DNA of 64,000 nt from IMG/VR virus record IMGVR_UViG_3300028283_000231; one strand, 5' to 3'. The notes beneath the pieces are model-generated. The model was not told where the DNA came from and searched no databases. It saw only the letters and a list, made by a program, of their open reading frames with translations. Source of the DNA: a virus (lineage: Duplodnaviria > Caudoviricetes). Both the position numbers and the translations under genes were made by a program. Position 1 is the stretch's first letter, and every line of letters begins with the position of its first letter. Shown one piece after another: positions 39,072 through 57,034 of this stretch.

Positions 39072-39110
39072 TGATTAATATAATGAGAAAAGATTAAAAA
39101 GTTTATTCAA

Positions 39111-39905
39111 TTATCCTCTACGGTGCATTGATGGAGGTCCCGATTTTTTAAGAAAATCCTCTATTGTTTTATAAAATCCTTTCTTTTTAGGTTTTTCAGG
39201 TGGAGGGTTATGTCTTCTAGCTTGTTCTTCTTCGAAGTTTCTTCTATGTAAGGCTTCAATATTAGCTTCCCTACCTCTTTCGAATTCTCTGACTCTACGT
39301 TCCTGGTCTCTTTGTAACATTGCTATAACATCTGCTGGTGGTATATGACGATGAGCCATTCTTGCTCTACCAGCGTCTCTTACATCTGGTGCTGGAATAG
39401 GTTCTACCATATCATCTTCAACGTCCCAATCCTCTTCACCGTAGGCTGCTTCCACTGGATCTCTTTCTGGTTTTTTAACTTTTTCTGGGGTATCCCATAC
39501 TTCTTCACCATAAGGATCAACGTCTGCATGTACTTTTCTTTCTAAATCTTCGTGATAACGAGCACATATATTTAATATAACATCTAAATATTTAGTTCTA
39601 TTATAAATATCACTTTTAAATTTTCTACTATGTGTAGTATTACCTTGTTTGTCTTTTATTATCAATTCGTAAATCTCTGAAAATTCATCGGGACAAGTTT
39701 TAATTATTTCAAAATCGCAATAGGTGTCCTCACACGTGGCAGATTTATTGATGATAACAAACCCTTCATCTTCTAATAATTTCTTTTCTGCCAGTCCAAA
39801 ACTTTTTCCTTTTTCTGGATCAAAAGGCATAAAGGTATCGCCTATTTCGAAATTAGCAGGAGCTTTTCTTTTTAGTTCTTCAAATAATTTAAAACTCTTT
39901 ATCAT
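39111..39905 (-). CDS. Putative virion internal protein with a capsid-targeting-like N-terminus and two YGEExW motifs
   Basis: MIKSFKLFEE; DPYGEEVW and AAYGEEDW; TTAATATATAC upstream. Confidence 0.5.
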   Translation of the reverse strand: MIKSFKLFEELKRKAPANFEIGDTFMPFDPEKGKSFGLAEKKLLEDEGFVIINKSATCEDTYCDFEIIKTCPDEFSEIYELIIKDKQGNTTHSRKFKSDIYNRTKYLDVILNICARYHEDLERKVHADVDPYGEEVWDTPEKVKKPERDPVEAAYGEEDWDVEDDMVEPIPAPDVRDAGRARMAHRHIPPADVIAMLQRDQERRVREFERGREANIEALHRRNFEEEQARRHNPPPEKPKKKGFYKTIEDFLKKSGPPSMHRRG

Positions 39906-39986
39906 AGTAACTGTATATATTAAAATAAACTTTTAATATTTTTATCTATAAATAGTACAACACATTAAAAAATAATTGACTATGAA

Positions 39987-40238
39987 ATGAAAATTATAGA
40001 AATAAAGAACGGTGATGAATTATCAAAGTTTATAGAAGAGTATAAACAATTTCACTCTGAAAGAGGAATAGCTGAAAGTTCAAATATTTTAGTTGGAAAC
40101 TATAATCAAGATAAAGGTAAATTTCTTGTTGTTGATAAAAATGATGACTTGGTTTATGAAGTCAATAAAATATATATTTGTCGACATCAAAATACACACA
40201 TGTTAGATTATAAAATTGAATATTGTGAAATTGGATAA
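39987..40238 (+). CDS. Hypothetical protein
   Basis: ORF behind an AAACTT-N14-TATAAATA motif. Confidence 0.5.
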   Translation: MKIIEIKNGDELSKFIEEYKQFHSERGIAESSNILVGNYNQDKGKFLVVDKNDDLVYEVNKIYICRHQNTHMLDYKIEYCEIG

Positions 40239-40300
40239 TTTACCATAAAATTTCTTGAAATGATTTCAAGTGTAAATATTCAAAAAGAATATTCCTATAA

Positions 40301-41374
40301 ATGGAATTTAAAAAGCAATTAGAATGTATGAAAAAAAGGGCGTTAATAACAGGTATAACAGGAATGGATGGTTCTCACTTATCAGAGCTTCTTTTAGAAA
40401 AAGGTTACGAAGTACACGGTATAATTAGACGTTCCAGTTCATTTAATACTGGAAGAATTGATCATATTTACCCCCAATTAAAACTTCATTACGGTGACGT
40501 TACTGATACTCTTTCAATAGAACACGTCATTCAAGACATTAAACCAGATGAATTATATAATCTGGCAGCCCAATCCCACGTAGCAGTTTCTTTTGAACTC
40601 CCTGAATATACAGGTCAAGTAGACGCATTAGGTGTACTTAGAATATTAGAAACAGTTAGACGTTACTCTCCACATACAAAGATATATCAAGCATCTACAT
40701 CAGAATTGTTTGGTAAAGTAGAAGAAGTACCACAAAAAGAAACAACACCATTCCATCCCAGATCTCCTTACGGTGTAGCTAAACTTTACGCTTACTGGAT
40801 TTGTAAAAATTACAGAGAAGCTTATAACTTATTCATCTCTAACGGTATATTATTTAATCACGAAGGCGAGCGTAGAGGTGAAACATTCGTAACAAGAAAA
40901 ATTACAAAAGGTTTGGTTGAGTGGACAAAAACAAAAACCCCTATACATTTAGGTAATTTAAATGCTAAAAGAGATTGGGGTTACGCTAAAGATTTTGTAT
41001 ATGGTATGTATCTCATGTTACAACAAGATAAACCAGATGATTTCGTTTTAGCTACAGGTGAAGCACATTCGAATAAAGAATTTATTGAAGAAGCTTGTAA
41101 ATACGTTAATATTGATATAGTATGGCGTGGAGAAGGAGTTAATGAAATTGGGGTAGATAAAAATTCTGGTGACGCTATTGTGATACAAGTTGATCCAAAA
41201 TATTTCAGACCAGCAGAAGTTGATCTTTTACTTGGTGATCCAACAAAGGCCAAGGAAGTTCTTGGTTGGGAAGCTAAAACTAAATTTAAAGATTTGGTTA
41301 AACTCATGATGGAAAGTGATTTAGATAAATATGGTGAAAAAAATCTATGGCAAAAATTTTTTAAGAAGGGATAA
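40301..41374 (+). CDS. gmd: GDP-mannose 4,6-dehydratase
   Basis: ALITGITGMDGSHL, YNLAAQSHV, YQASTSELFG, PRSPYGVAKLY, LFNHEGERRGETFVTRKIT, RPAEVDLLLGD. The start may be 40328. Confidence 0.95.
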   Translation: MEFKKQLECMKKRALITGITGMDGSHLSELLLEKGYEVHGIIRRSSSFNTGRIDHIYPQLKLHYGDVTDTLSIEHVIQDIKPDELYNLAAQSHVAVSFELPEYTGQVDALGVLRILETVRRYSPHTKIYQASTSELFGKVEEVPQKETTPFHPRSPYGVAKLYAYWICKNYREAYNLFISNGILFNHEGERRGETFVTRKITKGLVEWTKTKTPIHLGNLNAKRDWGYAKDFVYGMYLMLQQDKPDDFVLATGEAHSNKEFIEEACKYVNIDIVWRGEGVNEIGVDKNSGDAIVIQVDPKYFRPAEVDLLLGDPTKAKEVLGWEAKTKFKDLVKLMMESDLDKYGEKNLWQKFFKKG

Positions 41375-41378
41375 GTTA

Positions 41379-42242
41379 ATGAAAATACCAACCGAAAATG
41401 ATTTTTATGTTAGAATAGAAAAAGAGCCTAATAAGGTTATTATTAATTCTGTTAATTTAAATGACGCTGGTGGTAGTGAGCATTTAAATAAAATATTAAA
41501 AATAGATTTTATTTTAAATGGCAACATTTCTTATTCACTTTCATGTAATTTTTCTGATCCGAATATTAATCATTGGATAGTACCATATGGTTATTCAAAT
41601 GATAATGACGATTTAATATTAAATTTTTACGACGAATCTAGACATTTATTTGATATAAAAATTGATAAATTATATGGTAATCACATTTATAATAAAATAG
41701 ATGGTTGGTTTGATTTCCAAAGTGTTTATAAAGAAGCTGTTCAAAACGGAAAAGACGGAGATCATTTTGTTGAAATAGGTTCTTGGTTAGGGCGTTCTGG
41801 TTCTTTTATGGCGACTGAAATAAAAAATTCAGGCAAAAAAATAAAATTTGATTGTATAGACACTTGGCAAGGATCAGGTGAAGTATATCACGAAGAATAT
41901 TTGAAAGATAATAGTTTATACGATAATTTTTTAAAAAACATATCACCTTTAAAAGAGTACATAAATCCAATAGTAGAATATTCTTATATAGCTCCAAAAT
42001 ATTACGAAGATTTGTCTTTAGATTTTGTTTTTATAGACGCTGATCATAGTTACGAGATAGCTAAAAAAGATATAACAGAATGGTACCCAAAAGTAAAAAT
42101 AGGCGGAACAATCGCTGGTCACGATTATTATAATTCATGGCACGTTCAAAAAGCTGTGAATGAAATATTTGGAGAAAATATAACACAAAATAGATTATCA
42201 TGGATTCATAAAAAAGAGAGCGATCTCTTTCCACTAAATTGA
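41379..42242 (+). CDS. N-terminal beta-rich domain plus Methyltransf_24-like domain
   Basis: FVEIGSWLGRS, CIDTW.G, FVFIDADHSYE, GGTIAGHDY. The ATG at 41379 is preferred over 41331. Confidence 0.8.
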   Translation: MKIPTENDFYVRIEKEPNKVIINSVNLNDAGGSEHLNKILKIDFILNGNISYSLSCNFSDPNINHWIVPYGYSNDNDDLILNFYDESRHLFDIKIDKLYGNHIYNKIDGWFDFQSVYKEAVQNGKDGDHFVEIGSWLGRSGSFMATEIKNSGKKIKFDCIDTWQGSGEVYHEEYLKDNSLYDNFLKNISPLKEYINPIVEYSYIAPKYYEDLSLDFVFIDADHSYEIAKKDITEWYPKVKIGGTIAGHDYYNSWHVQKAVNEIFGENITQNRLSWIHKKESDLFPLN

Positions 42243-42306
42243 TAATCAGTGTATTATAAATAACAAGATTAAAAATTTATATATAGGTAAAAAATATAAT
42301 ACGAAA

Positions 42307-42738
42307 ATGAAAAAGGTTTACGAGAATTTAACGAAGGAGAATATCAACAAGAATTTGTTTGATGTTGATTTTGAATTTGATGATTTGAATAGTATTGAAA
42401 AACAATTATTAAAGGATTATATAAATAAGATAACTGATAATATGATGGAGTTTGAACTTATGTCTGTTGATAAGACTGTTCAACCACTTGATATATTGAT
42501 CAGATTGAAGAATAATAAATTGACTGGTGATGTTTTGGTTAAAATGAAAGATAAGGATGATCATATTCTTGGTGTTTTTAAATTTAAGACATTAAAAGTG
42601 ACTGAAATTAATAATTTAATTGATTTTGATTTTGGTGAAGCTGATTTTAGAGGAAGTCAGAAGACTCTGACGATAAATTTTATCTACGATGATATTCTTT
42701 ATTCTAATGACGGAAAAGAATATGAGAAACTCACATAA
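42307..42738 (+). CDS. Putative virion protein, possibly tail-tube (gp19-like) fold
   Basis: GVFKF..L.VTEI...DF......LTINFIYD resembles T4 gp19-like C-termini. TTTATATATAG lies upstream. Confidence 0.3.
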   Translation: MKKVYENLTKENINKNLFDVDFEFDDLNSIEKQLLKDYINKITDNMMEFELMSVDKTVQPLDILIRLKNNKLTGDVLVKMKDKDDHILGVFKFKTLKVTEINNLIDFDFGEADFRGSQKTLTINFIYDDILYSNDGKEYEKLT

Positions 42739-42797
42739 TTCGAATTTTTAAACTTAAAATTTATATTCACGTATAAATAAAAAAAGAATATTATTTT

Positions 42798-43325
42798 ATG
42801 CAAATACTCATTACACCCGAAGACATTATAAGACGTTGTTTATGGTTGGATTATAAAAGATTTTGTCTAAAGGAAAAAGGCGAAGAAGAATTAAGGAAAG
42901 TTATAGAAGAAAATAAACCAGTCGCTTTAAAGGAAGACGACGCCTATGTGATAGGTTTATTAAAGATTGTAGAAACTCCAAATCTAGTTCACAGACTAAA
43001 AGAGCACATGGATGAAGTATTAAAAATAAGAAGTAATATTTTCAATAATAAGTTGTTCATTATAAAATCAGTAGCTTTAAAAGAAATAGGACAATTCGTA
43101 CAAAGATTCCCAGAAGGTTTTAAAGCTCCTTTTGAATATAAAAAGGGGATAGAGGATTTGAAAGTTTTCTCTGAAAAAATATACGGTGAAGTGGATAGAT
43201 TACCAACTCAAACTTTCCAAAACGGTGATAAAACTTACACATATGTTTCATCTAATAGTGTTAAAAATATAGTGGATGAAAAAGATAAAGAGAAAGAAAA
43301 AGACAAGGTTGAAAAAATACTATAA
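42798..43325 (+). CDS. Hypothetical protein
   Basis: 175-aa ORF behind an AAACTT-N16-TATAAATA motif. Confidence 0.55.
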   Translation: MQILITPEDIIRRCLWLDYKRFCLKEKGEEELRKVIEENKPVALKEDDAYVIGLLKIVETPNLVHRLKEHMDEVLKIRSNIFNNKLFIIKSVALKEIGQFVQRFPEGFKAPFEYKKGIEDLKVFSEKIYGEVDRLPTQTFQNGDKTYTYVSSNSVKNIVDEKDKEKEKDKVEKIL

Positions 43326-43651
43326 TGGCTAGACTTTTCACATACGGTGAATTACAAAGGTCTGATGTTCAGATTAAAATTTTAGGTAAAGAGATTCCTG
43401 GAACATTTGACAGTATTAGTAATTGGATGGTACTGAACGATTTCGATAAAGGTAAATATTATTTACAATTAGCTAGTCAGCCAAGTGGAATAGTATTCGG
43501 TAAAATATTAGAATTAACAGACGAAGATATAAAAATCCTAGATAATTACGAAAAAAATTATTTCAGATACACCTTAAAAACAGATAATGACGTCACAGTC
43601 GAAACTTACGTCAAGAACAACGATAAATATAAAGATGATTACGCTTTTTAA
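43325..43651 (+). CDS. Gamma-glutamylcyclotransferase (GGCT/AIG2-like)
   Basis: LFTYGELQ, VFGKILELT..DIKILDNYE..Y. Confidence 0.75.
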   Translation: MARLFTYGELQRSDVQIKILGKEIPGTFDSISNWMVLNDFDKGKYYLQLASQPSGIVFGKILELTDEDIKILDNYEKNYFRYTLKTDNDVTVETYVKNNDKYKDDYAF

Positions 43652-44874
43652 ATAGTTCTAAATACTACAGCGTCTTTGAATTTCCAATAAACAATGATTC
43701 CTTGATCAAAAGAATATTTACCAGTCAATTCTTTTGAGTCTGATGCTCTTACTTTTGTTTTAGTTTTCAATAAATCTACATTCTCAATTTGTTCAACTGT
43801 TCTATATACTGGAAGTTCTTTGCCTATTTTATTAATAAGGAACTGATAATAAGATTCTATTATTTCTAATGTACCCAAGCTCCTCTCTAAGAAAGCTTTT
43901 TTCATTTTTGGATAATCTGGACTCTCAAGCGCCTTTTCGTATTTAGCTTTATTTGCCAATAAATCTTCGTGTGTAGATATTTTTTCCTCTAAAAGGAAAT
44001 CCTTATAAGAAAATTCTAAAAGATCCTCTTTCTTAAAAGGCACTACATTTTTTGCTATAACTACGTCTTCGTCGTCGTCCTCTTCTTCGCTAATTTCAAC
44101 TTTTGTATCACCTTCCTTTGGTCCATTTACTGGTATATTAAATCCAGCTTTCTTTTTAGCGTATTCAGATATTTTAATTTCACTAGCACTCATGTATATA
44201 CTAGTTGTAGTTCCATCCTCTTCAAGAAAATCTACCATACAACTATTATCGTTGTCCCATACATTAGTTACTTCACCAACTTTATTATAATATTCACTTG
44301 CTTGATCTACACATAAAACCTTATCACCCATGTTGAAAATAACATCAGCAGAAGGCTCGTCTGACGATGTAACAAATTCTTTTTTAACTAACATAGAATG
44401 CTTACTTTGATTTTTAGAATCATCTTCATCAAATTCAATAAGGTAAGCGTCTTTATTTACTTTCTTAACTGTTCCCTTGGCGTCTTTCCATTCAGTCTTG
44501 CCTTCTACGCCGTTCACAATGACTCTCTTACCTATACTGATATCGTCGTCTGATGTTTCAGTTTCTTTTTTAGGTTCTTTAGGTTTGAATTGATTTTCGA
44601 TATAACTTGATTGTTTTTTAGCTTCTGTTTCTACTGGTGCTGGTTCGTTTTCAAATCTTAATTCTGATTCTAATGCCATTATAGAAGCACCAGATGGAGT
44701 TTTGATACTGTACTCACCTTTGTTAGTTGAAAAAACAAATGCCACATCACATAAAGCGCCTTTATGTATATTATAATAAGATCTATTTGATAAAGGCGTG
44801 AATATAACCTTATCTCCTTTTTTAAATTTAGAGTCTTCTGTCGATTCTTTTATGTAATCAAAATATTTTAACAT
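43648..44874 (-). CDS. Putative virion internal protein with three SH3/KOW-like modules
   Basis: MLKYFDYIKES N-terminus; KFKKGDKVIF, ISIGKRVIV and FNMGDKVLC modules. Confidence 0.45.
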   Translation of the reverse strand: MLKYFDYIKESTEDSKFKKGDKVIFTPLSNRSYYNIHKGALCDVAFVFSTNKGEYSIKTPSGASIMALESELRFENEPAPVETEAKKQSSYIENQFKPKEPKKETETSDDDISIGKRVIVNGVEGKTEWKDAKGTVKKVNKDAYLIEFDEDDSKNQSKHSMLVKKEFVTSSDEPSADVIFNMGDKVLCVDQASEYYNKVGEVTNVWDNDNSCMVDFLEEDGTTTSIYMSASEIKISEYAKKKAGFNIPVNGPKEGDTKVEISEEEDDDEDVVIAKNVVPFKKEDLLEFSYKDFLLEEKISTHEDLLANKAKYEKALESPDYPKMKKAFLERSLGTLEIIESYYQFLINKIGKELPVYRTVEQIENVDLLKTKTKVRASDSKELTGKYSFDQGIIVYWKFKDAVVFRTI

Positions 44875-44876
44875 AC

Positions 44877-45764
44877 TTACAAATTTATTTTCCTTTTCAC
44901 ATTTAAAAATTTCAATATTATAGATTTTATTCCATCTATATTATATACCCAGTCCTTTTCCCACACATGTAACAATTTAATATTATTATCTTTACATCTA
45001 TTAGATTTATTATCGTGATAGTCCAGTTTTCTAAATTTTTCACTATGCCAATATGTTCCATTAAATTCAAATGCTATTTGTAATTCTGGTAAATAAATAT
45101 CTAACTCCAATGGTGGTATTATTTTTCTACTATTTAAAATTATTATACCATTATAATGTGTTTTTATAAAATCCTGCAGTTGTATTTCATATCCGCTTGT
45201 GTGATTATCAACTGGATTACAAACAGTGCACAATATAGTTTTATATTTATTTTTCCTTGTTATAAACACTTTTTTATTGATTCTATATATCGATCCACAT
45301 TTATCACACTTTAAAATATATTCATTTTTATCATAGTCAACATCAATTATATTTAGATTTGAATATTTATCGATCACGAATTTTTTAAAACTTGACCTCA
45401 AAAAACTTTCATTTCCATATCTTTCAGTATTGGTCTTTTTAATTTTTTCTTTTATTTCATCATTTTGAAAAACATTATCAAAACCATATATATGTTTTAC
45501 AGTTTTATCCATTTTGATTTTTTGACAATTCGAACAACAATAGTACCCACCGTTATTAAAACTCAATAAGTATCTTCTATATTGTAATTTTTTTTCTTTA
45601 CCGCAAATATCACATTTAACATTTATAATATGATGACTTGTTGGTAAAAGATGCTCTATCGGAACACTTATCACGTCGTGCTCTTTTACCACATAACCAA
45701 GATCTTTGTAATGTTTTATACAATAATTGTTTATATTAATATCTACGGTTTTATCTATTATCAT
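44877..45764 (-). mobile_element. Free-standing putative homing endonuclease (zinc ribbons + C-terminal DUF559/PD-(D/E)XK-like domain)
   Basis: CDICG, CCSNC, CDKCG, CTVCN; KTNTERYG repeat; ELDIYLPELQIAFEFNGTYWHS...LLHVWE. Confidence 0.7.
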
Positions 45765-47209
45765 ATATTAATTTTCCTTATTTGATTCATCATCATTACT
45801 TTTTTGTTAATCTCTTTTTCTTTTGGTTCTTGCTTTTCCTGTTGGTTCTCATTCCATATGAGATTTAGTTTCCATTTGATTCCGGTAATATCGTGTATAA
45901 TCCAATTCTTCATCAAATCCATAAACTTAAGACCGTAAAAAGTTCCTTGCTTTTCACATCTGCCTAACACGTTTGAAAGATTCCCTATTCCAGGGTGTCC
46001 TCCGCTTTTAGCTCCAGCATATTTGAAACCAAATTGTCTTGGTAAAACAAAATTCATTAAAAACCTCGTATATTTATCCAAATCATCTAACACTTCACCA
46101 CCTTTTAAAACTGGTAATTTTTCTGCTGCATCTATATTTCTGTAAGCAGCCAACTGTAAAGAAGCACCATAATCAAGAAGAATAAATTGAATATTCTTAT
46201 CGTGTTTACCAAGTGCCATTTCTATTAAAGCTCTTGCTCTCAAAGCGTTGGCCCAAGTTCCAACTGGTACATATACTAAATTCTTTATAACAACGAAACC
46301 GTCGAATTTAAATTTATTTTCTTCCATATTCCAGTAGAATGTTTCGAAATCTTCGATATTATATATTGTTGGTTTATCATATTGGCCAAGTGTTTTGCCC
46401 ATCATTTTACCTAGTCTTTCTGTTGAATCTGGCACAAATTCGGGTATTGCTTTTAATTCTTCGTCGTCTTCTAGAGGTATTCTGTTTAGTACTCTATGTC
46501 TTATATCTTCTTTATCTGCTCCTCTTTTTACTGATAGGTTATTCAAAGGATAAAGAATTTTAAATAATTTGAATATTTTATATATGGAAAGTGTGCCGTT
46601 GGCTACAACTTCTATAATAGTTCTATAATCACTTCTTTTAACTAATTGATTGAAAGCCCCAGCAAATACAAGTCTTGGGTCTTTTTCTTTCATTATATCT
46701 CTAAGATTAAAATTTAAAATCGTTTTAATATCAACGTTATATTCGTCATATTTTGCTGCGTCAATCATAGATATAACAGACAGAATGTATTTATCTGTTG
46801 GCATTCCAAGAACTCTTACTATTAAACCGTAACATGAGTCACTTTTCATTTTAATAGAAAATTCGCTTTTCTTATATAAATCGCCTTCTTCCATGTGGTG
46901 ATCTATATAGAGATCAAGGTCAGCGTTATCTTCAGCGTAATCAACACAAACATTTATATATGTTTTATCTATCGTTATATCTCTCCAGCCAGATTCGTAA
47001 TCCATTACACAATATCCGCATATAGTAAATCCTCTATTAGATAAATATTCTTTCATCGCTATCGCGCTGAATATGCCATCCATGTCATTGTGTGTGTAAA
47101 TTATAACATCCTTATCACGTTTGCCTTTCTTCTTCCAGTATCCCAAATCATTTGGAAATTTTACAGAAGCCTCTTCATTTAATATATATTCATTAAATTT
47201 TATTTTCAT
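45761..47209 (-). CDS. DHH/DHHA1-family phosphoesterase with a capsid-targeting-like N-terminus
   Basis: THNDMDGIFSA, CVDY, YIDHH, SGGHPGIG; starts MKIKFNEYILNEE. Confidence 0.65.
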   Translation of the reverse strand: MKIKFNEYILNEEASVKFPNDLGYWKKKGKRDKDVIIYTHNDMDGIFSAIAMKEYLSNRGFTICGYCVMDYESGWRDITIDKTYINVCVDYAEDNADLDLYIDHHMEEGDLYKKSEFSIKMKSDSCYGLIVRVLGMPTDKYILSVISMIDAAKYDEYNVDIKTILNFNLRDIMKEKDPRLVFAGAFNQLVKRSDYRTIIEVVANGTLSIYKIFKLFKILYPLNNLSVKRGADKEDIRHRVLNRIPLEDDEELKAIPEFVPDSTERLGKMMGKTLGQYDKPTIYNIEDFETFYWNMEENKFKFDGFVVIKNLVYVPVGTWANALRARALIEMALGKHDKNIQFILLDYGASLQLAAYRNIDAAEKLPVLKGGEVLDDLDKYTRFLMNFVLPRQFGFKYAGAKSGGHPGIGNLSNVLGRCEKQGTFYGLKFMDLMKNWIIHDITGIKWKLNLIWNENQQEKQEPKEKEINKKVMMMNQIRKINI

Positions 47210-48104: not shown

Positions 48105-48169
48105 TAAAAGTATTATTTTTTGTTATATATAAATTTTTTATTCTCGTTTTGTAATTTGCCTTTTTTGTA

Positions 48170-49042
48170 TCATCTTATTCTTTCTACTGGTTCTGGTTTA
48201 GAATACGTGCCCCCTTTTCTTTTAAATAATAAAAGTGTTTCAGGTACCCATTTAGTATTACCATCTTTGAATTTAATTCTATATTCTGTAACGTGCATAT
48301 ATGCTTTAAATTCTAATATTTCAACTTCTACTGCGTCAGGTATATATAAACATATATCACCATATTTAAATTTATCGTCTTTGCCTTCATTTAACAATTT
48401 ACCTTTTTTGTACCATCTTATTTTCACTGGTTTTTCTGGTTCTAAATCTTCCATGAAATAAAAATGTTTTCTAGCGTAAGAATCAACATGTCCGTTGTCC
48501 CATTTTATTGTATATGGGAGACCGTCGTATTCTTCCTCATCGTAAGGGTTATAATTTTGTATTACACCACAACCGCTATCTCCTCCTTTAAATCCATAGG
48601 CCTGATTTAGATAATCTTTTGGACAATCTTCTTTCATTTTTACTCTTTTACCAATAAACTCTTTAGATTCGTTTAATTTACCTTTTTTGTACCATCTTAC
48701 TCTTGTTGGTTTCTTATTATCATTGATATATTCATCAATAAAATCAACCCCTTCCATAAAATCGTAACTGTTATAATCATTACCTGGTCCTATTAAACCA
48801 CCTTTTCTACCGTACCCTAAAGCTCCTGGTTCGTGTAATATGAAGCAAAAATCGGGTGATTCATTTTTAAAACAATTATAATCTTTATTCAATGTCTTTA
48901 CTCTTTCTTCCCCCCACGTGAATCCCTCAAAATCCAAAAATTCGGCTATAACATTATAGTCTTCTATACTGTGAATACAAATAATTAATTTAGTTAAACC
49001 ATTTGATGATTCTTTAATATATGTCCAATAGTTTTTCAACAT
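48170..49042 (-). CDS. Putative packaged polyprotein: three modules joined by RWYKKGKL-(L)NE linkers
   Basis: MLKNYWTYIKES; RVRWYKKGKLNES; KIRWYKKGKLLNEG; ends RIR*YKKGKLQNE. Confidence 0.5.
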   Translation of the reverse strand: MLKNYWTYIKESSNGLTKLIICIHSIEDYNVIAEFLDFEGFTWGEERVKTLNKDYNCFKNESPDFCFILHEPGALGYGRKGGLIGPGNDYNSYDFMEGVDFIDEYINDNKKPTRVRWYKKGKLNESKEFIGKRVKMKEDCPKDYLNQAYGFKGGDSGCGVIQNYNPYDEEEYDGLPYTIKWDNGHVDSYARKHFYFMEDLEPEKPVKIRWYKKGKLLNEGKDDKFKYGDICLYIPDAVEVEILEFKAYMHVTEYRIKFKDGNTKWVPETLLLFKRKGGTYSKPEPVERIR

Positions 49043-49117
49043 AACGCTATATATTAAAATTTTTAAACAAAACTTTTAAGGAATAAATTCGTATAAAATA
49101 AAACATTAATTATTGAT

Positions 49118-49900
49118 ATGCCTGTCGTAGATAGAAATACAAATATTACATTCACAATATCAACCGATCAATTATCAAATCTTCTAAAGAAAATAAAAGA
49201 TTTGACTTCAATTGATCAACGTATAGTCATGAAAATAGACGCCAATAACGTTTTATTGTTCTCTTTTGTAGGTGAGACTTTCAAAAATATACACGCCTTC
49301 AAAAGTTACATCTTCTCTCTTGAGGAAGTTTTTACTATTAAAAAAGGCGAACTAGAAGAACCTCTTTTCTTTATAGCAAGAGACGGTAAGAAACTATACA
49401 GAATATTAGAAAATTTCCTTATCTATAAAGAAGAAATAAATTGTAAAATTTCAGCCAACGACGAAAACTACGTTAATTACATCGCTTTCGATACTAAAAA
49501 GATGAGCGAGAAAGTTATTGGTAGTGACCCTATTGCTATTGGTTCTCAGATTAGTATAGACGATATTAATTTCCTTATGAATATTGATAATTCTAAATTC
49601 AATTTCAGATTAGATAGAGCTGATTTCTTACAAATTAAAAAAAGAGGAGTCATAGAAAACGAACCAAAAAGTGTTCTATATATCAACGTAGTTAATAAGG
49701 CGTTAACTATTGGTGAAACCAAATGGCATCTAAACATTTTAGATGAAGTTGAAAGTGAAGATATTATGCTGTCTTTCCCCAAAGCGTATTTTAATACAAT
49801 AAATCCAACAGAGTATATACAGATATACGTATTTGAAGATTTCATACTCGCTAAGTATGACGATTACAATCTCATGATTATTTTAGAAACAACAATTTAA
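49118..49900 (+). CDS. Possible DNA sliding clamp / processivity factor (gp45/PCNA-like)
   Basis: 260 aa with a two-fold helix-plus-beta pattern (FTISTDQLSNLLKKI; FRLDRADFLQIKKR; LSFPKAYF). No diagnostic motif. Confidence 0.35.
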   Translation: MPVVDRNTNITFTISTDQLSNLLKKIKDLTSIDQRIVMKIDANNVLLFSFVGETFKNIHAFKSYIFSLEEVFTIKKGELEEPLFFIARDGKKLYRILENFLIYKEEINCKISANDENYVNYIAFDTKKMSEKVIGSDPIAIGSQISIDDINFLMNIDNSKFNFRLDRADFLQIKKRGVIENEPKSVLYINVVNKALTIGETKWHLNILDEVESEDIMLSFPKAYFNTINPTEYIQIYVFEDFILAKYDDYNLMIILETTI

Positions 49901-49947
49901 ATTTTCATTTTTCCATATTAATATATAGAAGAAAATAAGTTAGAGTT

Positions 49948-50556
49948 ATGACCAAGAATTATAAATCCTTTGTTGAAGCTGCTAAATGGTATAGTAGTCC
50001 TGAGGAATTAGACGCTGAAGAACGTAGAAATAGTTTTAGTGGTTATCACGATTACGATGAAGGTGGCGACGGTGGTGATTACTACGATGACGATGGTGAT
50101 CCCGATGAATATGGCAAAATTCAGGAGTTTCAAATACAATCCGGCAGAGAACCAGATGAAGATATGGAAGAAAGAGAACTTGATTTAGATATGGATTTTG
50201 ATAGAGATGAAGATCCTAAAACCCCAATAAATGTTGGAGAAGAAGTAGTTTATCTCGGTAATACTGGTGGCAGACGTTATCAATTAGGTTCAGTTCATAA
50301 ATTGAGAGAAGATGGTAAAATTGTAGTTAGGTTTGACGATAAGAAACTTGTTGCTGTGAGTAAACCACATCTAAGACATAAACTTAGCGAAGAAGAAATT
50401 GTGAAAAAGAAAGCTGAATTAGAAATAAAAAAACAAGAAAGAAAGACTAAAAGAGCTGAACAAGAAGCTAAGAGATTAGCACAAGAAGAAGAGGCTAAAA
50501 AGAATCCACCTCCAGTAACTGGCGCAAGATGGTGGGAAAAAAATAAAAAAGAATAA
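49948..50556 (+). CDS. Putative virion internal protein: acidic region + SH3-like module + coiled coil
   Basis: MTKNYKSFVEA; D/G/Y-rich stretch; VGEEVVY...EDGKIVVRFDDKKL. Confidence 0.45.
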   Translation: MTKNYKSFVEAAKWYSSPEELDAEERRNSFSGYHDYDEGGDGGDYYDDDGDPDEYGKIQEFQIQSGREPDEDMEERELDLDMDFDRDEDPKTPINVGEEVVYLGNTGGRRYQLGSVHKLREDGKIVVRFDDKKLVAVSKPHLRHKLSEEEIVKKKAELEIKKQERKTKRAEQEAKRLAQEEEAKKNPPPVTGARWWEKNKKE

Positions 50557-51575
50557 TGGTAAAAAGATATAAACAATTCATCAACGAAGGAGTAGACGAA
50601 AAAGCAAAAATGGACGAACTCCTCGATAAAGGTTTAGAAAATTTAACACCAGATGAAAAGATACTCCTTGATAAACTTAGCAAAGGTGGTACTCTAGATC
50701 CAGATAATAAACCTGGTAATAGTCCTGTTCATCAAGATGATGATGATTTAGATTATCTTAATAAAATGTTAGGAAATCACGCTGATGAAGAAATTCCTGT
50801 TAAACCTGTGGTTAAAGGTGGACCAGTGAATGACGACGGACCAACAGAAGGCGATAGAATTGTTTATTATAAAGAAGGTTCAGAGCACGATGGTAAAACT
50901 GGTATTTTTGCTGGTATTAGAGAAGATGACGGTAAATATAGAATAGTCTTTGATGATAAGAAAAAATTAGCAGCCAACGCTAAAAATGTTTACGCTGCTG
51001 GTACACCAAGACCTGCACCAAAGAAAAAATTACCTGAGGGTTATCATGAAATTCCAGAAGAAAAATTGGGTAGAGCAGAATGGGGACCAGGTACATTCGA
51101 TGTACCAGATACATTCTACGGTGGTAAAGCACCTGAAAAACCAAAATCTAATTTCAAAAAAGGGGATAAAGTTTTATACAAGAACGATAAATCTGAGCAT
51201 AATAACAAACAAGCAACTTTTGTAGAACAAAAAGAAGACGGCAAATTATCAATCAGATTTGAAGGTGGTGGTAAATTGGCTTGTAATCCAAAGAACGTAG
51301 TTCCTTTCTCAATAGAATTACCTAAACAAGATTTTATTATTCGTCTTGGAACAATACCAGAGAATAATTCGATAGGTGCTGGGGTATTCCTTGATAGTGG
51401 TGAAATGTATGACGAACACATTCTAAATCAATACCCAGAGTTACAAAGAATGGGATTTGAAGAACCCGCTGAAGGTGATTTACGTTATAACGGAGATCTT
51501 GATATAGAAGAATTACACATCGAGTTACAAGAGAGAGATTTCAGAGTTGAAGTTGTTAACGGAAATTTATACTAA
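50556..51575 (+). CDS. Putative virion internal protein with two SH3-like repeats
   Basis: MVKRYKQFINE; GDRIVY..SEHDGK..DGKYRIVFDDKKKL and GDKVLY..SEHNNK..DGKLSIRFEGGGKL. Confidence 0.5.
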   Translation: MVKRYKQFINEGVDEKAKMDELLDKGLENLTPDEKILLDKLSKGGTLDPDNKPGNSPVHQDDDDLDYLNKMLGNHADEEIPVKPVVKGGPVNDDGPTEGDRIVYYKEGSEHDGKTGIFAGIREDDGKYRIVFDDKKKLAANAKNVYAAGTPRPAPKKKLPEGYHEIPEEKLGRAEWGPGTFDVPDTFYGGKAPEKPKSNFKKGDKVLYKNDKSEHNNKQATFVEQKEDGKLSIRFEGGGKLACNPKNVVPFSIELPKQDFIIRLGTIPENNSIGAGVFLDSGEMYDEHILNQYPELQRMGFEEPAEGDLRYNGDLDIEELHIELQERDFRVEVVNGNLY

Positions 51576-51603
51576 AATATTTTTTTAGTAAATAAAACTT
51601 TCG

Positions 51604-51611
51604 TATCTTTG
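51604..51611 (+). promoter_or_regulatory. Bacteroidota-type -7 promoter element (TAnnTTTG)
   Basis: Intergenic cgTATCTTTGtg 18 nt before the ATG at 51630, heading a run of small genes. The -33 TTTG is imperfect. Confidence 0.5.
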
Positions 51612-51629
51612 TGTTAGAAAAATACGAAT

Positions 51630-51947
51630 ATGAAAGTACAATCCTATATTATTAAGAAAGAAGTCCTTGTGGATTCAGAATACGAATTACTAACGAACGT
51701 TAGTGGTGCATTCAACGCGGAATCCCCCTTTGCAGTTAAAGTAGCAGATATTAAAGAATGTTTAGAAATTACCAACGATCTAAACACTGGTGAAGAAGTT
51801 ATGGATTGTGCTGGTAGGACATGGATTCCCGACTACGATGGCGATATTAACTTCATGACTAAAATCCTCAAAGAAGCTGAAGGTTGTGAATACATCATTG
51901 TTGAATTTGATAATTATTACGAACTATATACGATTGAAACAGATTAA
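51630..51947 (+). CDS. Hypothetical protein
   Basis: First ORF after the TATCTTTG element. Confidence 0.55.
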   Translation: MKVQSYIIKKEVLVDSEYELLTNVSGAFNAESPFAVKVADIKECLEITNDLNTGEEVMDCAGRTWIPDYDGDINFMTKILKEAEGCEYIIVEFDNYYELYTIETD

Positions 51948-51970
51948 TTAACCCCTTAACACTTAAACAA

Positions 51971-52081
51971 ATGGCAAACGAAAAAGTTTACATCGAGATT
52001 GATGGTGAAGTTATCTTTTTGAACCCCGATATGGAAGATGTTATCCGTTGGGCTAATAGTGATTATACAACTGAGGACTAA
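51971..52081 (+). CDS. Small hypothetical protein (36 aa)
   Basis: Read by eye: MANEKVYIEIDGEVIFLNPDMEDVIRWANSDYTTED; TAATG coupling to the next ORF. Confidence 0.5.
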   Translation: MANEKVYIEIDGEVIFLNPDMEDVIRWANSDYTTED

Positions 52082-52254
52082 TGGAATACATTAAGATTAA
52101 AACTGGTGACGATGTAATTCGTCTTGAGTTTGTTATGAGTGCTGAAGAAATGAAAGCAGTATATAATCTTCTTATAGAACAGCACAAAGATATGATTTCA
52201 TATAAGAAAGTAGCAAAAAGAATGGAAAAACAATTAAAGACTTTAGAAAAATGA
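52081..52254 (+). CDS. Small hypothetical protein (57 aa)
   Basis: Read by eye: MEYIKIKTGDDVIRLEFVMSAEEMKAVYNLL...; ATGA overlap downstream. Confidence 0.55.
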   Translation: MEYIKIKTGDDVIRLEFVMSAEEMKAVYNLLIEQHKDMISYKKVAKRMEKQLKTLEK

Positions 52255-52616
52255 AAAGAATTAAACTTTGCAATTTAGTATTTTTAGGACTTGTTGTCCT
52301 TTCAATGTTTGGATTATTTGCTTCTTGCACTGATCCTGGAACAACTGAAAAATTTACTGGATGTGGTAGTGATAGCGCTAAGATCAAACCTTGTATTATA
52401 AATGGTGACACTTTGGAACTTTATCAGTATTACTACGCCACTGGTTCAGCAATTTGGATTGCTAAATCTAAAAATTATTCTACCACAAATCTTACTTACA
52501 GAGTCGGTAAGCATGACGAATCTGTTATTATTCTGAATGGTGATCCTTATAGGAGAATTCAGGGAACTGTTATTATGGAAAATGATAGTATGGTTTTAAT
52601 CAAGAAAAAACTGTAA
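52251..52616 (+). CDS. Putative lipoprotein
   Basis: Basic N-terminus, hydrophobic stretch, lipobox-like FASC. Confidence 0.5.
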   Translation: MKRIKLCNLVFLGLVVLSMFGLFASCTDPGTTEKFTGCGSDSAKIKPCIINGDTLELYQYYYATGSAIWIAKSKNYSTTNLTYRVGKHDESVIILNGDPYRRIQGTVIMENDSMVLIKKKL

Positions 52617-52617
52617 T

Positions 52618-52803
52618 ATGTTACATTGGGCATTCAAATATTTTACATTTTTTATTGACGCTTGTCTTTTGGGGATGGGGTTAGTTGTCCTAATCTTCGG
52701 AGCAAATGGTTACGCTAAACCATTAGGTATAATAGTAATAATCGCGTCAATCCTTATGATTTTATACGATATTAAATACGTTAAAGATAATAAAACTGAA
52801 TAA
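52618..52803 (+). CDS. Small two-TM membrane protein
   Basis: Two hydrophobic segments. Confidence 0.5.
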   Translation: MLHWAFKYFTFFIDACLLGMGLVVLIFGANGYAKPLGIIVIIASILMILYDIKYVKDNKTE

Positions 52804-52805
52804 CT

Positions 52806-52997
52806 ATGAACCAATTTTTAAAAGAAACATTCACCGCTATTGCCTGTTTCCCAGCTTTACTTTACGTATTATTTTCATTTGGAAACGGATCTTTTGATAT
52901 ATCAACATGGACTGAAGGAGCTAGAGGATCACTTGCTGCTTTTGGAGCACTTTTATCAGCCGTAATCACAATTATTCAGGGACTTAGATATTTTTAA
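52806..52997 (+). CDS. Small two-TM membrane protein
   Basis: Two hydrophobic segments. Confidence 0.5.
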   Translation: MNQFLKETFTAIACFPALLYVLFSFGNGSFDISTWTEGARGSLAAFGALLSAVITIIQGLRYF

Positions 52998-53101
52998 TTT
53001 AACATTTTGTTAATCTTGAAACTTAAACTTCACCCCGTTTTCCTTAATATATATATATAATAGCAACCTTAGGCATTCTTTCTATAATCTTTTAAGCAAA
53101 A

Positions 53102-53126
53102 AAAATCCCAATTAAGTTGGGATTTT
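53102..53126 (-). terminator. Intrinsic terminator, possibly bidirectional
   Basis: aaaatcccaa-ttaag-ttgggatttt stem, followed by a long T run on the minus strand, between convergent genes. Confidence 0.7.
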
Positions 53127-53147
53127 CTGTTTAAAATAAGCCTTAAC

Positions 53148-53387
53148 TTATTTCTTCTTTCCTAATTTCTTCACAGGAAGCTTAGCAATTGAGTCAGCTT
53201 TCTTAATTGAGTCAGCTTTTGCAATTGAATCAGCTACTAATTGAGCGGCTTGAACTTTTGCGCAAGAATCAGCTACAAATGTTGAATCCTGAATTCTCTT
53301 AGCTTCAATTTCCTTAGCGGATGGACCACAAGATACAGCCAAAAATGTAACGGCTGCGATTACCAAAATACCAAATAATTTTTTCAT
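53148..53387 (-). CDS. Bacteroidota-style lipoprotein with DSI(A/K)K repeats
   Basis: MKKLFGILVIAAVTFLAVSC lipobox; ADSIAKADSIKKADSIAK. Confidence 0.7.
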   Translation of the reverse strand: MKKLFGILVIAAVTFLAVSCGPSAKEIEAKRIQDSTFVADSCAKVQAAQLVADSIAKADSIKKADSIAKLPVKKLGKKK

Positions 53388-53537
53388 GTTTACTTTCTTT
53401 TATTTTTTAAAAATGTTATATTTCTTATCCCCCAATTTAATCAAAGTTTAAAAAAATTTTAACATTTTTTAACGATTTTATATATTCATTTAAAAAAGTC
53501 TATTTTTTCCAAATTGATTTTTTATATATAGAAAGGT

Positions 53538-54413
53538 ATGATAAATATAATAAAATATTCTTTATTTGAATCTAAGAAATATAAAAAGTATAACAATATG
53601 CTTAAGAATCTTGGTGTTATGGACGATAAAGGAGATATCAACCTTAAAGACATGACTGAGAAGATCAATCAGTTCCTTTCTAAAGACGGTAACAAGGATA
53701 AATTTATGAAAGATTACGACGATAAGATTTCTCCAGATGTTAAAGTGAAGAATGAAAAATTTAAAGCCATCGATTTAAAACCAAGTCAAACTGAAATATT
53801 CCTTGATCACGTTCTTTCCAGATTAGTTGTAAACGACGGTGATAGAAAACAAATACTTAAAGGTGGATTTAAAGATCACGATATTCTCATTAGCTCAGAC
53901 GGTCATATTATAGACGGACATCATAGATGGTTATGTGCCTTCATATTAAATCCAGAATGTGAATTAGATTGCACAGAAATAGAAATACCAATAGAATACG
54001 CTCTTCCTGTTATCAACGCCATAATAGAAGCTTCTGAAAAAGAAACAGATACTTTAAAAGATACTTATAAAATTAATATCTTTGACGCTATGGATTGGAA
54101 GAAGGAGAAGTTATTTAAGAAGATGAATTCGATTATTAAGAAGGCTATAAAGAGTGGAGTTGGTATAGGTGAAGAGAAGAAGAAATCTAATAAATATCCG
54201 AAAACAATTGAAGGTTTAGATAATATAAGTACAGACGTCACTAAACCTTTTTATAAGAAACTTAGAAAGAAATTAAAGTTACAGAATCATCCTCTTAAAC
54301 ACATAAGAGAGAATATGAAACAAATTCCGAAACCAAAGGAGTTATTTAGTGATAGAAAAGATATGCCACAATTAAAGAAGAAGGACGCTAAAAACTTTTA
54401 TGATACCTATTGA
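53538..54413 (+). CDS. ParB/Sulfiredoxin-like domain protein with a capsid-targeting-like N-terminus
   Basis: LKPSQTEI, ILISSDGHIIDGHHRW; starts MINIIKYSLFES; TTTATATATAG upstream. Confidence 0.6.
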   Translation: MINIIKYSLFESKKYKKYNNMLKNLGVMDDKGDINLKDMTEKINQFLSKDGNKDKFMKDYDDKISPDVKVKNEKFKAIDLKPSQTEIFLDHVLSRLVVNDGDRKQILKGGFKDHDILISSDGHIIDGHHRWLCAFILNPECELDCTEIEIPIEYALPVINAIIEASEKETDTLKDTYKINIFDAMDWKKEKLFKKMNSIIKKAIKSGVGIGEEKKKSNKYPKTIEGLDNISTDVTKPFYKKLRKKLKLQNHPLKHIRENMKQIPKPKELFSDRKDMPQLKKKDAKNFYDTY

Positions 54414-54819
54414 AATTTTAAAGATTAAAGACGACCTAAGAAATGGTTATCATATTTTATGCCGTGTCCACATCAATGGTAAAGAATTTAGAATGCTTGT
54501 AGATACTGGTTCTTCTATGACTTTGTTTGATATGAAAAAACAAAAGGAAATAAGTCAGTACGAAGCAGAAAATAACGACCAACATATAGTAGCTGTTGGT
54601 AGTGGTAATATTAAAAGTAAATATATCGTTATAGATGAAATGAGAATAGGTAATGTAATCATAAGAGATTATAAAACTATGTTACTTAATTTAGAATTCA
54701 TTAACGAACATTTTAGAACTAATGGTAATCCAACGATTGATGGTATAATTGGCGGAGATATATTAGCTGATCATAAGGCTGTTATAGATTACGAAAAGCG
54801 TGAAATGAAGTTATCATAG
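54400..54819 (+). CDS. Retropepsin-like aspartyl protease
   Basis: FRMLVDTGSS, DGIIGGDIL, VIDY. Confidence 0.85.
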   Translation: MIPIEILKIKDDLRNGYHILCRVHINGKEFRMLVDTGSSMTLFDMKKQKEISQYEAENNDQHIVAVGSGNIKSKYIVIDEMRIGNVIIRDYKTMLLNLEFINEHFRTNGNPTIDGIIGGDILADHKAVIDYEKREMKLS

Positions 54820-56209
54820 ATTCGTTATATAATTTCCCCTTTTTGTACCATCTTACCTTACCAGCTTCTTCTTTTTCTTCTTTTTTTCTCGATAAATATC
54901 TCACATCACAAGGGTGATCGTTCCACTCGGGGTCGTCTAAAAATCTATAATGGACTGTTTCTGCGTCTCTTTGTTGTCTGGTTATCATAACCTCGGCACC
55001 AACTTTATCTTTGTAATTTTTTCCTTTATAAATTAGGATTTCACCAACTTTAAAAAAATCTCCTTTATCCTCGTTGATTTTATTTTCTTCCAACCAATCT
55101 TCTTCACCGTAAGGATCGTGATGTAAATGTAATTTATTTAATTCGTCTCTTTTTATTTTTAATAGATTCGGTCTATCTTTTACGTAGTTTTCAATATCTT
55201 TAAAATTATCAATAAATTCATCAACAGTTACAGTTACGTCATTATCTGCTGTTCTACTCTGGTAAATTCTTTTTCCATCGTTATCTATTCCTATACCAAC
55301 ATTATAATGTGGGCATAAATAACCTCTATAAGTTCCATCATGATACCAAGACGGAAACCATCTCTCAAGCTCTTCTCCGCCACCTCCCCAAACAAACCAA
55401 TTCTTTTTAAGGAAATTGATTAATTCGTGATATTTTTCTTTAGAATCTACTTTTACGTAAAGACTATCTATACTTAAATAACTTTCATTTATCTTACTTT
55501 CGTTTTCCCAGTCTTCTTCGCCATATGGATCTACGTCTTTAGTTTTGAGATATAGTTGTTTAAGTCTTCTTATTTCTTTTTTAGTTTTTCTAATTTTATC
55601 TACTTTTTTCAAATTCCCTCTTTCGAACCAAATACCATCTACTTGCCAATATCTATCATTATTTGGGTTCAGATTCACTTTAAATTGTGTTCTATTATTC
55701 CTAAAATCAGTGATAACTCCTACTCTACTATTATATCTATCTACGTATCCATGTATAATTTCAACATCATCACCAACATATAAATCTTTTTTACTTTCAT
55801 TGACTACACTTTCATATTCCCATTCTTCTTCACCGTATGGGTCCCAAGGTGATACAGGATCTGGTTTATCTTCGTAATATATTACATTTGTAACACCACT
55901 ACCTATATGTAATATAACATCATAATCATTATCAGCAACCATGTGAACTTTCTGATTTTCATCTAAATATATCTTAACAATCTTCCAATGTCCTGCTCCA
56001 TGTATTTCATTCCCACCATCTTTATTCTTACCTAAAACTGGGAAACTACACACCTTACCTATCAATCTCTTTTTAAGGTATTCAGTAAATCTTCCCCACA
56101 ATTCTTTACCGTCTCTTATTCTATCTATTCTTTGAATATCGTGTAAAATATTAAGAGGAACAATCTCCTTAATAATATATCCTTCGGGTGTGAATTTACT
56201 TATACGCAT
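54782..56209 (-). CDS. Putative packaged polyprotein: four modules joined by DPYGEExW..xNE and RWYKKGKL-YNE linkers
   Basis: DPYGEEEWEYESVVNES; DPYGEEDWENESKINES; DPYGEEDWLEENKINED; KVRWYKKGKLYNES. Confidence 0.5.
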   Translation of the reverse strand: MRISKFTPEGYIIKEIVPLNILHDIQRIDRIRDGKELWGRFTEYLKKRLIGKVCSFPVLGKNKDGGNEIHGAGHWKIVKIYLDENQKVHMVADNDYDVILHIGSGVTNVIYYEDKPDPVSPWDPYGEEEWEYESVVNESKKDLYVGDDVEIIHGYVDRYNSRVGVITDFRNNRTQFKVNLNPNNDRYWQVDGIWFERGNLKKVDKIRKTKKEIRRLKQLYLKTKDVDPYGEEDWENESKINESYLSIDSLYVKVDSKEKYHELINFLKKNWFVWGGGGEELERWFPSWYHDGTYRGYLCPHYNVGIGIDNDGKRIYQSRTADNDVTVTVDEFIDNFKDIENYVKDRPNLLKIKRDELNKLHLHHDPYGEEDWLEENKINEDKGDFFKVGEILIYKGKNYKDKVGAEVMITRQQRDAETVHYRFLDDPEWNDHPCDVRYLSRKKEEKEEAGKVRWYKKGKLYNESMITSFHAFRNL

Positions 56210-56295
56210 AACTCGACTATATATTAAAAATTAAAAACAATTTACTCGATATTGATTATATATGATAACAAACCTTAAAAAATAATAGCCTATGA

Positions 56296-56970: not shown

Positions 56971-56981
56971 TTTCCCCTGTG

Positions 56982-57034
56982 TTTTTGTTGTTTTAGACAT
57001 TTAGATTTTTATATATACAATAAAACAACAAAAA
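56982..57034 (+). promoter_or_regulatory. 14-bp inverted repeat masking the endonuclease leader, with a putative late promoter in its loop
   Basis: tttttgttgtttta (56982-56995) pairs with taaaacaacaaaaa (57021-57034). TTTATATATAC is at 57008-57018 and the ATG at 57039. Confidence 0.65.

Follow-up and report, generated by a model that had tools for sequence, protein, structure and literature searches.

A short N-terminal leader that resembles the capsid targeting sequence of phage T4 is expanded in a lineage of huge phages

Introduction

The capsid targeting sequence (CTS) of bacteriophage T4, the N-terminal peptide MKTYQEFIAE of the internal proteins IPII and IPIII, has been defined experimentally and is removed by the prohead protease gp21 (PMC8442874; PMC5694885; for the source literature see also Mullaney and Black, 1996; PMC3012670). 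T4 proteins that are cleaved only once remain in the head (PMC8442874), the propeptide of gp23 comprises 65 residues (PMC5694885), and the internal-protein genes of T-even phages are exchanged as cassettes by recombination, their products having only the CTS in common (PMC3012670). A similar N-terminus was proposed in a preliminary description for nine proteins encoded between positions 39,111 and 56,209 of a 64,000-nucleotide stretch of phage DNA (IMG/VR virus record IMGVR_UViG_3300028283_000231; Duplodnaviria, Caudoviricetes), the whole of which is called the window here, and was regarded as a genome-wide packaging tag for a large cargo of head-packaged, injected effectors. We have analysed this leader in the window, in a close relative of its phage and in further phage genomes, and conclude that it is probably a T4-type capsid-targeting and prohead-protease propeptide that has been greatly expanded in a lineage of huge phages.

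Results

The leader is a widespread N-terminal element

Positions 39000-57000 of the window, which has a G+C content of 28-30%, are 87.8% identical over 81% of their length to LR756501.1 ('uncultured phage', 735,411 bp); the genes stand in the same order as at 277-336 kb of LR756501, and the proteins are mostly 83-99% identical. The largest huge-phage genomes of Al-Shayeb et al. (2020) belong to the Mahaphage clade, for which Bacteroidetes hosts are predicted (PMC7162821). LR756501 was fetched whole and served as a proxy for the window's phage in all genome-wide tests; the longest ATG open reading frames (ORFs) of at least 60 aa were chosen by greedy selection, which led to 960 ORFs and 92% coding sequence.

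The scan of all N-termini that had been suggested as a check revealed the strict pattern M-x(2-5)-[FY]-x-x-[FYW]-[ILV]-x-E at 44 ORF starts, compared to 2.0 expected from internal methionines (8/3840) and 1.06 +/- 1.07 from shuffled N-termini, with a consensus of M-[IVL]-K-[KN]-[YF]-N-x-[FY]-[ILV]-[NK]-E-[AS]. An 11-column matrix built from these matches gave 56 sites of at least 12 bits at residue offsets 0-6, but only 3 in the 186,390 positions that lie past residue 40. Eight further matches lie at offsets 7-40, and five of these directly follow an internal methionine and thus represent mis-called starts; the leader is strictly N-terminal in LR756501. A second class (class B) with the pattern M-x(1-6)-[FY]-x-[ILV]-[FY]-E, as in MIKKFKLFE, was detected at 17 ORF starts (0.75 expected), and both classes together amount to approximately 77 tagged ORFs or about 8% of the 960, where 2-3 would be expected. 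The claim of a genome-wide tag is hence borne out in the close relative.

From the methionine to the glutamate the leader spans 9-11 residues (the mode) in 52 of 70 cases, with an aromatic residue at P7 and P4, I/L/V at P3, usually Asn or Lys at P2 and Glu at P1. The residues at P3 and P1 are fixed by the construction of the pattern, whereas P1' is independent of it and is Ala, Ser or Gly in 35/70 leaders against a background of 17.6%. The leaders are amphipathic, with a helical hydrophobic moment of 1.24, compared to 0.87 for shuffled sequences and 0.93 for other N-termini (p = 8e-7). When the first 20 residues were removed, the 77 tagged proteins fell into 52 BLAST components, 49 of them singletons, while the remainder consisted of one true paralog family with nine members and one loose net linked by short motifs. 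Pfam matches among them include a SAM methyltransferase, PPK2 (1e-76), two radical-SAM proteins, DeoC, GNAT and a nucleotidyltransferase, with most proteins giving no match, and the tagged genes are clustered, since 41 of the 77 have another leader gene no more than two ORFs away (21.8 +/- 5.1 at random).

These data also bear on the suspicion that no functional tag underlies the likeness, which would instead reflect paralog descent, an AT-rich codon bias at N-termini or a translation-initiation signal. A genome of 28-32% G+C is rich in codons for K, N, I, Y and F, M-I-K-K is a typical protein start where the AT content is high, and one family of nine paralogs does exist. However, the composition-keeping shuffles and internal-methionine controls yield one or two leaders instead of 44, and 49 of 77 bodies are BLAST singletons. 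Moreover, the choice among synonymous codons at the conserved positions follows that of the whole genome (Glu: GAA 38 and GAG 14, compared to 82%/18% genome-wide; F, Y and N likewise), which indicates selection on the peptide and not on the RNA. This explanation is therefore very improbable, and it is largely refuted already.

The leader is recognised as T4 CTS and occurs in further phages

When all positions of 255 T4 ORFs were scored with the matrix derived from LR756501 only, the three highest scores were all N-terminal, with IPIII and IPII (18.7 bits each) ranked second and third, in agreement with the likeness to the T4 CTS that had been claimed. The first rank was taken by gp61.1 (AF158101 18966-19130, minus strand), a 54-aa hypothetical protein which starts with MKTFKEFIKED and reached 21.3 bits; judged by its sequence, T4 itself may have in gp61.1 a further protein whose CTS has gone unrecognised. 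With a relaxed core pattern, residues 59-65 of T4 gp23, FGSFLTE, were matched as well, and they are the exact end of its propeptide. The end of the leader agrees with the gp21 motif (L/I)-x-E and the small residue behind it, and class B keeps [ILV]-[FY]-E.

The exact sequence M-I-K-K-[YF]-x-x-[YF]-I-N-E was found at 54 IMG/VR loci, 48 of which have an ORF starting with a leader. Three further leader-bearing phages from IMG/VR, of 476, 177 and 116 kb (G005, G004 and G001), were analysed together with LR756501 and T4. Leaders of the first plus the second class numbered 48+17 in 960 ORFs of LR756501, 19+11 in 603 of G005, 7 in 174 of G004, 7+3 in 132 of G001 and 3+1 in 245 of T4, with 0-2.5 expected in these five genomes. 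A pattern with fixed spacing gave 15 matches in LR756501, 4 in a 634-kb relative and 5 in a 636-kb relative, and none with reversed-pattern controls. No published description of such expanded leader families was found in the literature on the capsid targeting sequence or on Mahaphage.

The leader core matches a repeat of the protease-scaffold protein

LR756501 encodes a portal (71969-73795; phrog_213, 1.7e-66), an 807-aa protein with a head maturation protease at its N-terminus (73913-76336; phrog_207, 4.9e-27) and a capsid protein of the Gp23 family (76415-78166; PF07068, 6.4e-24), and T4-type head genes are present in G001, G004 and G005 as well. The protease part is 26% identical to T4 gp21 in BLASTP (E = 4e-7), with GEFDHP aligned over GELNHP and VSSRAAG over VSSRGLG, the regions of gp21 that we take to be its catalytic His and Ser motifs. 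The remainder of the 807-aa protein contains 13 tandem 14-residue repeats Y-[SAT]-E-Y-[IV]-A-E-N-[LV]-D-K-[SN]-I-x, and their heptad Y-S-E-Y-[IL]-A-E equals the leader core; the core of the T4 CTS, Y-Q-E-F-I-A-E, is almost the same.

An S77-like domain stands at the N-terminus of this protein in 4/4 leader-bearing phages, and the repeats number 10-13 in each. In all four genomes the single protein richest in internal matches to the leader core is the protease-scaffold protein encoded next to the capsid gene (14, 11, 10 and 10 matches in LR756501, G005, G004 and G001, respectively), compared to a background of 0.3-0.5 per 1000 residues. An AlphaFold model of the protease-scaffold protein, based on two sequences, shows the repeat region as one long helix, but with a pLDDT of 44 the model is of low confidence, and only this helix is usable, and weakly so. 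As the repeat heptad matches the leader core in all four phages, the leader looks like one scaffold repeat plus a cut site, and the likely docking partner and the cutting enzyme would thus reside in one protein. That the leader core equals the scaffold repeat is a new finding of this work; a description of this link for T4 was not found in the literature.

Two other LR756501 proteins are related to these features. A small prohead-protease paralog (11314-11850, minus strand) has its His and Ser motifs replaced (GELGYP, FRPRAAG), and a diverged protease paralog is also known from SPN3US-like giant phages (PMC5694885). The second-highest count of internal core matches in LR756501 belongs to a protein of 1691 aa (21458-26533, minus strand), in which seven repeats approximately 58-61 residues apart carry the core match F-V-K-Y-[IL]-[IA]-E.

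The identity of leader core and scaffold repeat could also mean that the leader marks accessory proteins of the prohead core or scaffold, which after cleavage by the protease would for the most part be lost from the head or broken down, as is the case for T4 gp22, gp67 and gp68; they would be material for assembly or transient residents of the prohead instead of delivered effectors. The paralog family of nine would fit such a role, as two of its genes (LR756501 62965 and 65144) adjoin the head module, and so would the large share of tagged proteins without a recognisable enzyme domain. On the other hand, most tagged proteins have a single N-terminal site and not the many internal sites of a degradable scaffold; internal core matches are concentrated in the scaffold protein, with 0.28 per 1000 aa genome-wide; and folded enzymes are tagged, among them PPK2, a methyltransferase and the DHH phosphoesterase described below. 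In T4, moreover, a single cut leaves a protein inside the head (PMC8442874). We consider a role of the tagged proteins as core proteins unlikely.

Leaders in the window

The nine N-termini quoted in the preliminary description are all present at the respective gene starts (Table 1), and their leaders were scored with the matrix from LR756501. Three of them, in the proteins starting at 44874, 49042 and 50556, are strong examples of the family, and those starting at 47209, 39905, 53538 and 49948 are moderate or variant ones. The two that had been cited as weaker cases, at 42307 and 56209, are not supported as members, as they fit neither leader class and score below 3 bits. No further ORF in the rest of the window reaches 3 bits, and the same is true for every ORF of the glycan cluster at 1-39 kb, as had been stated for the glycan genes.

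Table 1. Window genes with quoted N-termini. A slash marks the predicted cut site; bits refer to the leader matrix; coordinates are those of the window.
Protein	Coordinates	Strand	N-terminus	Assignment	Leader codons	Bits	Promoter motif
408-aa orphan	43648..44874	-	MLKYFDYIKE/S	strong leader	44845-44874	23.2	none of its own
290-aa orphan	48170..49042	-	MLKNYWTYIKE/S	strong leader	49010-49042	23.0	late-type, 49047-49056, starting 14 nt from ATG
339-aa protein	50556..51575	+	MVKRYKQFINE/G	strong leader	50556-50588	23.8	
DHH/DHHA1 phosphoesterase, 482 aa	45761..47209	-	MKIKFNEYILNEE/AS	longer leader	47171-47209	8.8	
264-aa orphan	39111..39905	-	MIKSFKLFE/E	class-B leader	39879-39905		39913-39922
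291-aa protein	53538..54413	+	MINIIKYSLFE/S	class-B leader	53538-53570		53522-53531
202-aa orphan	49948..50556	+	MTKNYKSFVE/A	off-register variant leader	49948-49977		49919-49928
143-aa orphan	42307..42738	+	MKKVYENLTKE	not leader-like			late-type, 42277-42286, 30 nt upstream
475-aa multi-module protein	54782..56209	-	MRISKFTPE	not leader-like			56217-56226

Searches against PHROGs and Pfam showed that the leader proteins of the window are mostly orphans. The 408-aa protein gave no Pfam family above the cut-off; its gene lies downstream of another gene in its operon, and the ortholog in LR756501, 94% identical, has retained the leader as MLRYFDYIKE. For the 290-aa protein the leader is identical in the relative although the whole proteins are only 74% identical. 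In the 339-aa protein the leader is followed by a low-complexity linker and by two repeats with weak hints of an SH3/Tudor-like nature. A leader of the same type is present in 11 of its 12 metagenomic homologues, with F8 and E11 nearly invariant, and the protein is a member of the nine-member paralog family of LR756501. The N-terminus of the 202-aa protein is matched by neither leader regex nor matrix; its residues 1-16 are identical in the relative, compared to 83% over the whole protein, and its gene heads an operon that runs on into the gene of the 339-aa protein. The 291-aa protein (phrog_2859, function unknown) has an ortholog with 98% identity that is counted among the class-B matches of LR756501.

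The bodies of the nine proteins had been described as unrelated, and BLAST indeed finds only short tags common to them. With respect to the domains assigned to these bodies, the DHH enzyme holds, the SH3-like modules are weakly hinted at as above, and a 'ParB-like' protein has no support from the Pfam and PHROGs searches.

The leader as a separable module

The AlphaFold model of the DHH phosphoesterase has a mean pLDDT of 90.1, but only 51 for residues 1-10; a short separate helix (residues 4-11) is followed by a coil, the body begins at about residue 21, and the Pfam DHH match starts at residue 35. Foldseek assigned the fold to DHH-DHHA1 enzymes such as RecJ, NrnA and pGpG phosphodiesterase. 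The family comprises 381 metagenomic homologues, whose contigs reach 669 kb in length. Of the 120 homologues listed (38-85% identical), almost every one keeps a variable leader of the form aromatic-x-x-aromatic...[IL]-[NK]-E-(E), with a conserved [AS]-[AS]-P-R-[IL]-P directly after it. A few of these listed homologues start at the predicted cut site and have no leader, e.g. P0101 with M-SAPKIP. After the leader, the family (P0013-P0132) shows the conserved motif [AS][AS]PR[IL]P...YW..KGK..GK. The ortholog in LR756501 has kept its leader behind a TTG start. By sequence, the DHH phosphoesterase is a candidate for a conserved packaged virion enzyme of these phages.

At the locus of the 264-aa protein, LR756501 contains an extra gene of 103 aa directly after the leader. 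The 24-nt leader coding sequence is found on both sides of this insert, with the second copy behind a GTG start, and the duplication looks like a cassette exchange by recombination within the leader.

A promoter motif precedes many leader genes

Most of the quoted genes had been said to follow a TATA-like motif, and the motif TWATATATAV, corresponding to a TATATATA promoter, was indeed detected 14-30 nt upstream of 6/9. Within 60 nt upstream of the ORF start it precedes 32 of the 77 leader genes of LR756501, compared to 132 of the 883 others (odds ratio 4.0, p = 9e-8), so that the association between leader and promoter that had been put forward for testing was confirmed. LR756501 contains 247 copies, 164 of which lie in this upstream range. 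Their distances to the ATG show two maxima, one sharp at 14 nt, with 33 genes, and one broad at 24-32 nt; the shorter distance implies transcripts that nearly lack a 5' leader. Sequences similar to TATATATA are also located upstream of its portal, protease and capsid genes. Of the 13 copies in the window, 8 precede a gene, namely the six quoted genes and two genes of the homing-endonuclease type at 47193-48104 (minus strand) and 57039-57926 (plus strand), both with the motif 28-30 nt upstream. The former (phrog_559, HNH, 4e-73) is absent at the matching position of LR756501, and the latter, which has no match in LR756501, splits the Mre11-Rad50 gene of the window, a single ORF of 1202 aa in the relative.

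A second tag and an aspartyl protease

A second genome-wide tag, D-P-Y-G-E-E-x-W (DPYGEExW), occurs in LR756501 with 99 copies in 85 of the 960 ORFs, 39 of them no more than approximately 4 residues away from the C-terminus and 19 among residues 1-40. It is enriched on leader proteins (25/77, compared to 60/883 others), and internal copies are followed by [ILVF]-N-E within 12 residues in 7/60 cases (0.9 expected). In the window, the protein encoded at 39111-39905 has one internal copy (DPYGEEVW, residue 129), the 54782-56209 protein has three, the one at residue 122 with VNE behind it and those at residues 226 and 364 with INE, and the 48170-49042 protein contains NPYDEEEY. A retroviral-type aspartyl protease (Asp_protease_2, 1.5e-12) is encoded at 54400-54819 on the plus strand, overlapping the end of the 53538-54413 gene in the same operon. 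The second tag is absent from G005, G004, G001 and T4, and the aspartyl protease is absent from G005, G004 and G001 and present in the LR756501 lineage; given this common pattern of presence and absence, both may belong together. As the protease of the leader, the retropepsin-like enzyme is ruled out by its absence from three other leader-bearing phages.

The operon with an aspartyl protease gene next to a leader gene, the frequent occurrence of both tags on the same proteins, which points to a wide use of short linear motifs in this lineage, and the metabolic enzymes among the tagged proteins could be taken to mean that the leader serves a target other than the capsid. It would then be a sorting, docking or activation tag, either as a handle for a chaperone or hub, or as a propeptide that is cut in the cytoplasm by a phage protease, or by the retropepsin-like one of 54400-54819, and so times enzyme activity. 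Yet the three phages that lack both the aspartyl protease and the second tag do bear leaders, a gp21-like protease-scaffold protein with the matching repeat is present in 4/4 phages, and the leader was recognised as a T4 CTS by an independent scan. We therefore regard a target outside the capsid as quite unlikely.

Discussion

Therefore, from the strictly N-terminal position of the leader, its independent recognition in T4, the residues at its end and the matching repeat in the protease-scaffold protein, we think that there is good reason to see in the shared N-terminus a capsid-targeting propeptide of the T4 type, by which a large set of proteins is probably brought into the capsid as cargo. 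During prohead assembly, the leader may act as one scaffold repeat unit and dock its protein onto the scaffold core. The protease would then cut the scaffold and the leaders after the glutamate, the scaffold fragments and leaders would exit the head, and the mature proteins would stay inside with the DNA, from where at least some of them could enter the host at infection. Candidates for such delivered enzymes would be the DHH phosphoesterase of the window as well as the PPK2, radical-SAM, methyltransferase and nucleotidyltransferase proteins of LR756501. Recombination inside the leader coding sequence would allow genes to acquire the tag or to exchange it.

A more specific version, which we advance tentatively and would rather doubt than assert at present, is scaffold mimicry, in which the leader is a unit of the 14-residue coiled-coil repeat Y-S-E-Y-I-A-E-N-L-D-K-N-I-x. 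A protein acquiring it would be built into the core and freed by the same cut that dismantles the scaffold. If true, this would explain the mechanism of the T4 CTS, and huge phages could have evolved an injected kit of 30-80 proteins through nothing more than recombination at the leader coding sequence.

Several points weigh against the capsid-targeting propeptide. The docking step is drawn from a likeness in sequence, with the fold of the scaffold protein predicted at a pLDDT of 44, and some of the tagged proteins, above all the Fe-S radical-SAM enzymes and PPK2, are not what one would expect to find in a virion. The Pfam S77 matches of the protease are below the curated cut-off, and the window has no head genes, so that the machinery is taken from its 88%-identical relative. 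A gp55-like late sigma factor was not found in LR756501 (no match to T4 gp55), and 'late promoter' is thus used by analogy. LR756500 and Lak-B5 gave no matches to the fixed-spacing pattern, and Tenacibaculum phage PTm1, the nearest cultured phage by capsid protein (28% identity), has no leader family; it does have the protease-scaffold fusion. Among cultured relatives, a phage bearing the tag was not found. Finally, the ORF calling was crude and greedy, and the matrix is circular within LR756501, but independent for T4 and the IMG/VR phages.

If the tag works as in T4, approximately 5-8% of the genes would be devoted to proteins inside the capsid, compared to three internal proteins of T4. Capsid targeting has been used in T4 engineering for the packaging of foreign proteins. 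For uncultured phages the tag would offer a way to list candidate virion-delivered proteins from sequence only, and such proteins are the first phage factors that meet host defences. In addition, a tag that equals a scaffold repeat suggests a concrete and testable mechanism of capsid targeting.

Comparison with known systems

A short terminal peptide that sends unrelated enzymes into a protein shell of the HK97 fold is also found in the cargo-loading peptides of encapsulins. In contrast to the leader, these are C-terminal, bind the shell directly and stay uncleaved, and they act without scaffold or protease in cellular nanocompartments and not in virions.

The giant phages phiKZ, 201phi2-1 and SPN3US likewise have many head-internal proteins that are processed after Glu by a gp21-related protease, with propeptides that are thought to target them into the prohead, and a diverged protease paralog is also present (PMC5694885; PMC10052503). 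However, these phages belong to another lineage, their propeptides mostly exceed 100 residues and have no single common short motif, and the cleavage motif differs, with AXE in SPN3US and SXE in phiKZ (PMC5694885). In SPN3US far fewer proteins are cleaved, with eight in earlier studies and 42 head proteins uncleaved (PMC5694885; PMC10052503).

The closest agreement is with T4. Its CTS (M-K-T-Y-Q-E-F-I-A-E/A, with the slash at the cut) and the leader are both N-terminal and approximately 10 residues long, and in both a small residue comes next to the core aromatic-x-x-aromatic-I/L-x-E; both are borne by otherwise unrelated proteins, the tagged genes being swapped as cassettes, and a T4-type capsid protein, a portal and a gp21-like serine protease are present in both lineages. 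The leaders described here differ in that P2 is usually Asn or Lys and not Ala, that a second class represented by M-I-K-K-F-K-L-F-E exists, and that a single protein combines protease and scaffold, with the leader core as part of its 14-residue repeat. The candidate cargo also includes proteins of enzyme size (DHH, PPK2, radical SAM and methyltransferase). The largest difference is one of scale, as approximately 77 tagged ORFs (8%) in LR756501 and 30 in the 476-kb phage stand against two exact copies in T4; the expansion over T4 is about twentyfold.

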